Part shown: piece after piece, positions 1,491 through 1,963 of the stretch
How the letters are laid out: each line of letters opens with the position of its first letter
Numbering within the stretch: position 1 is the stretch's first letter
NCBI RefSeq assembly: GCF_003334815.1
Contig: NZ_QOWO01000057.1
Length of the DNA: 13,444 bases
Reading direction: 5' to 3' (one strand)
Origin: Escherichia coli
Lineage (GTDB): Bacteria; Pseudomonadota; Gammaproteobacteria; Enterobacterales; Enterobacteriaceae
The notes under the pieces: generated by a model
What the model was told of the DNA's origin: nothing
Databases searched by the model: none
What the model saw: the letters and a program-made list of their open reading frames with translations, nothing else
Made by a program: the position numbers and the translations under genes

Positions 1491-1574
1491 ATGGAAAATG
1501 AGCATCAATACAGTGGTGCCCGGTGTTCAGGGCAAGCCGCATATGTTGCTAAACGTCAGGAGTGCGCAAAATGA
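1491..1574 (+). CDS. idlP: 27-codon upstream ORF (iraD leader peptide) whose TGA stop overlaps the iraD ATG
   Basis: ATG at 1491 preceded by AAAGGGAATGGCT (GGGA/GGA motifs). Translation [27 protein letters not shown], stop TGA at 1572-1574 overlapping the iraD ATG at 1571-1573 (AAAATGATG). Too short to appear in the supplied ORF track. Matches the idlP leader peptide as I recall it from the literature. Confidence 0.7.
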
Positions 1575-1963
1575 TGCGCCAATCACGTCAGGCTGTTTTA
1601 CCTGAAATTTCAGGCAATAAAACGTCATCGCTGCGTAAATCAATATGTAGCGATCTCCTCACTCTTTTTAATTCTCCTCATTCGGCATTACCGTCATTAC
1701 TTGTTTCAGGCATGCCCGAGTGGCAAGTGCATAACCAGAGCGACAAACATCTCCAGAGCTGGTATTGCCGTCAGCTGCGTTCTGCACTGTTATTTCATGA
1801 GCCACGGATTGCGGCGTTGCAGGTCAATCTGAAAGAAGCGTACAGCCACACGCTGGCGATCAGCCTTGAGATAATGCTGTACCACGACGATGAACCGCTA
1901 ACGTTTGATCTGGTCTGGGATAATGGCGGTTGGCGTAGTGCGACCCTCGAGAATGTCAGCTAA
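1571..1963 (+). CDS. iraD: Anti-adaptor protein IraD (inhibits RssB-mediated RpoS degradation); phage gp25/GPW baseplate-like fold family
   Basis: Translation [23 protein letters not shown]...[10 protein letters not shown], 130 aa from the ATG at 1571; the track ORF begins 3 codons earlier at a GTG. Stop TAA at 1961-1963. Confidence 0.9.

Follow-up and report, generated by a model that had tools for sequence, protein, structure and literature searches.

The idlP leader ORF of iraD in an Escherichia coli strain: a known CsrA-controlled upstream ORF, its conservation in the genus and a common variant in the predicted anti-Shine-Dalgarno arm

Short translated ORFs in the 5' leader that set the expression of a downstream gene are exemplified by trpL, hisL and leuL, which respond to charged tRNA through stalling of the ribosome and have a transcription terminator as their target. 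The leader ORF idlP, located upstream of the anti-adapter gene iraD, belongs to the same EcoCyc class and figures in the EcoCyc list of leader peptides. However, idlP differs from the attenuation leaders in lacking both a regulatory codon run and a terminator; its input is an RNA-binding protein, CsrA, and it affects the initiation of translation at the following cistron. The evgL-evgA system resembles idlP-iraD in having a short leader ORF whose stop codon overlaps the start of a regulator gene, in the binding of CsrA to GGA sites of the leader-ORF Shine-Dalgarno (SD) sequence and in the loss of downstream translation upon a start-to-stop mutation of the leader (J Bacteriol 2024, PMC11210196). 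In evgL-evgA, additional CsrA binding takes place inside evgL and at the SD of evgA, and repression is both direct and coupled (PMC11210196), whereas no CsrA protection was seen at the GGA of the iraD SD (PMC5574718). The two systems have no sequence relationship.

In E. coli K-12, idlP was described as ORF27 (Park et al. 2017, mBio 8:e01355-17; PMC5574718), the present name being a later one used in EcoCyc and in reviews, which restate the mechanism. RNase T1 footprints on the leader comprised G residues at -112 to -103 (BS2), -90 to -84 (BS3) and -78/-77 (BS4), and the site form is given as 6 nt, GGA and 3 nt (Park et al. 2017). Of the four GGA sites bound by CsrA, BS3 doubles as the SD of the leader ORF, whose stop codon overlaps the start codon of iraD. 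An idlP'-'lacZ fusion was derepressed in a csrA::kan background, and replacement of the idlP ATG by TAG lowered iraD'-'lacZ expression both in vivo and in PURExpress. The authors concluded that repression of iraD by CsrA occurs entirely through coupling to ORF27 (Park et al. 2017). The system links CsrA, which reflects carbon and growth status, to the general stress regulator RpoS through IraD. As this link was published in 2017 and the element is annotated in reference genomes, idlP is already known, and its rediscovery here is of no value on its own.

The window analysed here is the whole stretch of 13,444 nucleotides from E. coli assembly GCF_003334815.1 (contig NZ_QOWO01000057.1). It has the usual yjiC ... 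mdtM neighbourhood, and yjiC, ytiD, hypT and iadA flank the locus as in K-12. A 664-nt region was matched by sequence search in 5395 of 5426 complete E. coli genomes, where the underlying features are annotated as 'idlP: iraD leader peptide IdlP', 'iraD', 'ytiD' and 'hypT'; RefSeq carries 'iraD leader peptide IdlP' in ~90% of the complete genomes. In K-12 J53 and in ETEC1731, which is near-identical to the source strain, RefSeq places idlP (WP_120795393.1) and iraD at positions equivalent to 1491-1574 and 1571-1963. Over the 296 nt from 1283 to 1578, which span P2, BS1-BS4, idlP and the iraD SD and start codon, every base is identical to K-12 J53, and the IdlP peptide is the K-12 protein of RefSeq. 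The statement in the initial annotation that the sequence matches a published mechanism, in which CsrA represses the leader ORF and thereby iraD, is thus borne out by the paper of Park et al. (2017) and by direct comparison with the published sequence. The iraD product scores 298 bits against the NCBIfam equivalog NF010726 (cut-off 198) over its full length (1-130) and differs from K-12 IraD in several residues. The csrA gene lies outside the window and its presence in the strain is assumed. The convergent hypT (1956-2867, - strand) shares 8 nt (1956-1963) with the 3' end of iraD, as in K-12. Window positions 1-77 give no ungapped alignment with ETEC1731, pointing to an indel or local divergence past the yjiC 3' end.

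Features of the iraD leader region (window coordinates)
Feature	Position	Strand	Description	Basis
Promoter P1	1142-1154	+	-10-like TATATT (1142-1147), inferred start near 1154	promoter-like match 1120-1147
Probable ORF23 of Park et al.	1185-1253	+	MLSIYIIYKLIVSNNTWLIMRK, in the frame 1113-1253	inside published fusion limits -498 to -376
ytiD (ORF47 of Park et al.)	1232-1375	+	47 aa	annotated ytiD at equivalent position in K-12 J53 and ETEC1731
Promoter P2	1422-1434	+	-10 TATACT (1422-1427), transcription start 1434	sequence; Park et al. 2017
BS1	1437-1439	+	GGA; weak, active only in P1 transcripts	GGA at -134; Park et al. 2017
BS2	1459-1468	+	GACAUGGAUG, GGA 1464-1466; critical high-affinity site	published footprint -112 to -103
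BS3	1481-1487	+	GGGAAUG, GGA 1482-1484; the idlP SD	published footprint -90 to -84
idlP (ORF27)	1491-1574	+	27-codon leader ORF	sequence; RefSeq WP_120795393.1; translation shown in K-12
BS4	1493-1495	+	GGA over the idlP start codon; weak	published protection -78/-77, G1493 and G1494
Predicted SD-sequestering hairpin	1555-1593	+	GUC-A-GGAGUGCGCA / loop AAAUGA / UGCGC-CAAUC-ACGUC-A-GGC	folding prediction
iraD SD	1559-1562	+	GGAG; fifth GGA, not CsrA-bound	sequence; Park et al. 2017
ATGA overlap	1571-1574	+	iraD start 1571-1573, idlP stop TGA 1572-1574	sequence; invariant in all lineages
iraD	1571-1963	+	anti-adapter protein, 130 aa (MMRQSRQAV...)	NCBIfam NF010726; RefSeq annotation
Variant	1587	+	G, T in K-12; iraD +17, codon 6 CTT to CGT (L6R); anti-SD CUUC to CGUC	comparison with K-12

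The 27-codon ORF with a TGA overlapping the iraD start codon, and the GGA motifs flanking its own start, are both present as first described. The idlP ATG lies at -80 relative to the iraD ATG, and at the junction GCAAAATGATGCG the letters TG are common to the idlP stop and the iraD start. On the + strand, GGA motifs start at 1437, 1464, 1482, 1493 and 1559, the first four corresponding to -134, -107, -89 and -78. Three of these are upstream of idlP, the first G of the fourth is the last base of the idlP ATG and the fifth is located within the iraD SD. Four GGA motifs within 67 nt is the top density in the window, reached at 3 places on the + strand (0.3% of positions). Transferred to the window, the published footprinted residues become G1459 to G1468, G1481 to G1487 and G1493/G1494; since these coordinates fall on G residues only if +1 is 1571, they confirm 1571 as the start codon used. 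The CsrA consensus obtained by SELEX is RUACARGGAUGU, and the BS2 context UGACAUGGAUGU (1458-1469) agrees with it at 9 of 12 positions, including ACA and GGAUGU. A further ORF in the +1 frame (ATG 1497 to 1605, + strand) crosses idlP and the iraD start. It is open in all Escherichia lineages examined, with an open-frame expectation of ~0.27, and was treated as a chance ORF, having no SD spacing. Frameshifted public assemblies join this ORF to iraD (P0002, P0003, P0008).

Two promoters precede the leader. The position of P1 was derived from the distances of Park et al. (2017), who report a spacing of 280 nt from the P1 start to the P2 start and a P1 fusion ending at -413, together with the promoter-like match. 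P2 was missed by the promoter scan and was placed from the description in the paper, according to which P2 transcripts have only 3 nt before the BS1 GGA and the leader fusion begins at -138 (Park et al. 2017). The ORFs between the promoters, ORF47 and ORF23, are translated but without effect on iraD (Park et al. 2017); the probable ORF23 equivalent is annotated as a hypothetical protein in E. coli WEM25. In the same strain, an IS1 element lies between ytiD and idlP (L014 458-1155; approximately window 1380-1490), in or beside P2 and the leader, and could change iraD expression there.

Through the identity of 1283-1578, CsrA binding and idlP translation can be carried over to the window from K-12. 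The segment 1434-1574 can be assigned with high confidence to the E. coli iraD leader, with idlP as a regulatory upstream ORF that would place iraD under CsrA control by translational coupling. CsrA bound at BS2 and BS3 (strong) and BS4 (weak) would, as shown in K-12, block ribosome entry at idlP. As iraD translation in K-12 is largely dependent on that of idlP, this repression would result in less IraD synthesis and a shorter half-life of the iraD mRNA. For the coupling itself, Park et al. (2017) proposed two routes, which they did not separate. In the first, a ribosome on idlP would melt a hairpin that sequesters the iraD SD (GGAG, 1559-1562), here predicted to pair with +16 to +19, and in the second a ribosome terminating at the UGA (1572-1574) would restart at the overlapping AUG (1571-1573). 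Sequestration of CsrA by CsrB/C, upon stationary-phase entry or ppGpp, would then allow idlP to be translated and IraD to rise, leading to a block of RssB and stabilisation of RpoS (Park et al. 2017). Since neither the CsrA sites nor the stop/start overlap nor the initiation region of idlP is altered, control by CsrA through coupling is very likely to operate in the source strain, although a weaker contribution of the hairpin is predicted owing to G at 1587. The expectation of the initial annotation that control is probably intact therefore holds in full for the overlap and the GGA motifs and needs qualification for the SD-sequestering hairpin, predicted to be weakened by the T to G change.

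Of 5426 complete E. coli genomes, 4846 contain the 147-nt segment of P2 leader and idlP with an identity of at least 99%. About 492 genomes (~9%), including UPEC 536 and APEC E19035, carry a divergent allele of ~78% identity, which resides in a uxuR-iraD-ptsP-like context without yjiC, ytiD and hypT. The idlP-like ORF of this allele is intact (MEYEHQPSGVRQPGQDTDATKRQECAK; APEC E19035, L002 1681-1764), with 27 codons and the same AAAATGATG junction, and the GGAs of BS2-BS4 are kept. Among the records examined, RefSeq annotates idlP on the K-12-type allele only, so that ~9% of E. coli genomes harbor an intact, unannotated idlP on a divergent iraD allele. E. albertii, E. whittamii, Escherichia sp. 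E1V33 and E. coli E69 likewise have a 27-codon ORF that contains no indels and overlaps iraD at an ATGA, and this also applies to the divergent E. coli alleles (two divergent alleles in all). Absence of the ORF from the literature and from homologous loci had been named as grounds for rejecting it; the ORF is published and kept across Escherichia. The BS2 and BS3 GGAs are retained in 7 of 7 aligned lineages, BS4 is lost in E. albertii only (ATGAGA) and BS1 is not conserved in the other Escherichia lineages. This conservation, judged from sequence comparison, parallels the published hierarchy of CsrA site importance. One 605-bp contig labelled Bacillus coahuilensis m4-4 (NZ_ABFU01000118.1; L004) encodes a protein with 97% identity to E. 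coli IraD and an idlP with an E2G replacement, and is almost certainly E. coli contamination of the Bacillus assembly.

The statistics of the sequence are in themselves not compelling, as dinucleotide shuffling of the upstream 190 nt yields an ATG-initiated ORF of at least 27 codons with a terminal ATGA overlap in 5.7% of 5000 trials, and the case rests on identity with the experimentally characterised locus. A functionless chance ORF nevertheless has next to no probability, given the translation and mutational data obtained in K-12 on the identical sequence, which already refute it for that strain, and the conservation of the ORF across the genus. Preservation of the reading frame is only weakly significant (chance of no stop ~0.4-0.57 per lineage) and was not used as primary evidence. 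It is also improbable that the leader ORF begins at the in-frame ATG 1485 and comprises 29 codons (MAMENEHQ...). This ATG is kept in every lineage, and the published ATG to TAG mutation at 1491 would stop the 29-codon product too and therefore favours neither start over the other. However, ATG 1485 directly follows the GGGA (1481-1484) without any SD spacing, compared to 6 nt for ATG 1491, and both RefSeq and Park et al. use 1491. Furthermore, a conserved AUG following GGA fits the GGAUG of the CsrA consensus. A role of IdlP as a small protein with a function of its own, regulation being secondary, is most improbable, even though it is translated in K-12 and has 27 codons throughout Escherichia. 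In a small sample of approximately four independent lineages, dN/dS relative to the window is 0.64-1.09 for idlP and 0.13-0.18 for iraD, and variable idlP sites are spread over codon positions 1/2/3 as 13/9/7, without third-position excess. The window and the divergent allele have only 17 of 27 IdlP residues in common, and the conserved ends of the peptide coincide with RNA signals, namely the CsrA sites, the start codon, the iraD SD and the hairpin. No variation is seen in the blocks GGAATG..TATGGAA.ATGAGCATCAA and ACGTCAGGAGTGCGCAAAATGATGCGCCAAT, although synonymous sites of iraD differ by 43-57%. An NCBIfam HMM search (E <= 0.01) yielded no family for either IdlP variant, nor for YtiD. With a peptide dN/dS of ~1 compared to ~0.15 for iraD, the comparison argues that the translation of idlP matters and not the peptide, which would itself be irrelevant; the constraint, as read from these alignments, is on the RNA signals and the open frame. 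What the comparison adds to the published work is that the signals of the mechanism are conserved across Escherichia while the peptide drifts, in support of translation over peptide. As to how CsrA lowers IraD in vivo, transcriptional polarity or decay of the untranslated leader mRNA, instead of coupling at the level of the ribosome, would agree with the 5-fold rise and the longer lifetime of the iraD mRNA upon mutation of csrA (csrA::kan) or BS2 (Park et al. 2017). This is unlikely to be the main route, as repression of 80-90% and its dependence on the idlP start were reproduced in purified PURExpress with T7 RNA polymerase, a system without Rho or RNases (Park et al. 2017), and no terminator-like site was found in window 1000-2100.

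The published model also requires a structure that sequesters the SD, and the fusions used reach +20 and so include the anti-SD (Park et al. 2017). The hairpin predicted here, which we infer to be the structure in Fig. 8 of PMC5574718, holds the idlP stop and the iraD start in its apical loop, and the SD GGAG (-12 to -9) is predicted to pair with +16 to +19. Its 3' arm reads UGCGC ... CUUC-A-GAC/GGC across lineages, and the predicted topology is common to five lineages (K-12, E69, E. albertii, the APEC allele and the window). In the hairpin, 94.5% of cells are paired, compared to 22-50% with the 3' partners slid. The predicted energies are -13.2 kcal/mol in K-12 (z -1.8 relative to shuffles), -13.8 in E69 (z -3.2), -14.0 in E. 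albertii (z -2.7) and -12.9 in the APEC allele (z -1.8), whereas the hairpin of the window, at -10.8 kcal/mol (z -0.2), is indistinguishable from shuffles. For this reason, the hairpin-melting route may matter less in the window allele. A covariation test of the hairpin was uninformative, the 5' arm being invariant. Shuffled sequences fold as stably as the whole leader (z = +0.2), and the RNAalifold consensus of seven sequences contains just one compensatory pair; with covariation near zero, a conserved global leader structure is not claimed. Furthermore, a scan of window 1000-2100 with the Rfam 15 covariance models gave no match at E <= 1.

Within the hairpin, the window differs from K-12 at two positions, with C for A at +9 (1579, synonymous) and G for T at +17 in the anti-SD arm. 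The C at +9 closes a fifth apical pair and is the common, apparently ancestral state, being found in 2761 genomes with T at +17 and in all other Escherichia lineages. In K-12, the A abolishes this G-C pair, which closes the apical stem enclosing the start codon, and the experimental reference strain is therefore itself a minority variant at this position. The G at +17, present in 827 of 5426 complete genomes (T in 4075), is predicted to break the central A-U pair of the SD helix. On the P2 transcript, the probability that the SD bases are unpaired is 0.01-0.03 in K-12, E69 and E. albertii, compared to 0.46-0.63 in the window. The predicted cost of freeing the SD decreases from 3.8 kcal/mol in K-12 to 1.4 in the window, and the predicted probability that all four SD bases are free increases from 0.002 to 0.10. 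This difference between K-12 and the window is present in 24 of 24 transcript definitions, and changing G+17 to U alone restores most of it.

On this basis, G+17 may be a natural regulatory variant. With a hairpin weaker by ~2.5-3 kcal/mol, ribosomes could start on iraD without translation of idlP, iraD would be partly uncoupled from its leader and more IraD would escape CsrA, so that control would be leakier and growing cells of this lineage would have raised basal levels of IraD and RpoS. We put this forward tentatively and regard it as possible, though on balance doubtful. The unpaired probability of the SD, the cost of its opening and the local hairpin energy all favour greater exposure in the window than in K-12, the 5' arm contains no compensating change and, as noted, the anti-SD lies inside the published fusions. 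However, the prediction is purely thermodynamic. The hairpin is weakened and not lost, with 12 of 13 pairs remaining, and both the AUGA for termination-reinitiation and all CsrA sites are intact. The APEC-type allele likewise has one broken pair (G+16), and the frequency of G+17 implies that it is at least tolerated. In addition, the L6R replacement in IraD could be the selected effect of the substitution, or be neutral. If the predicted weakening of the coupling hairpin by this common allele is correct, it would be a source of strain-to-strain variation in RpoS control.

In the genome contigs, the search for IraD returned Escherichia loci only, apart from the one contaminant contig. The nearest homologues beyond Escherichia in a protein search are TssE proteins of Citrobacter (~52% identity), whose genes are located within complete type VI secretion clusters, flanked by hcp and tssF (L011-L013; P0053, P0079). 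IraD itself reaches 48.6 bits against TIGR03357, just below the cut-off of 53.2, and is a homologue of the TssE/gp25-like baseplate proteins (PF04965). In contrast to tssE, which resides inside the secretion cluster, iraD stands alone and has a leader of its own, and IraD appears to have derived from TssE as a solitary form restricted to Escherichia. The Citrobacter tssE loci contain no idlP-like ORF. The hcp stop in Citrobacter abuts or overlaps the tssE start, which suggested that idlP might be left over from the 3' end of hcp; this origin was rejected, as neither DNA nor peptide similarity was above shuffles. In some sources the Citrobacter TssE is named 'anti-adapter protein IraD [Citrobacter freundii]', which looks like over-annotation.
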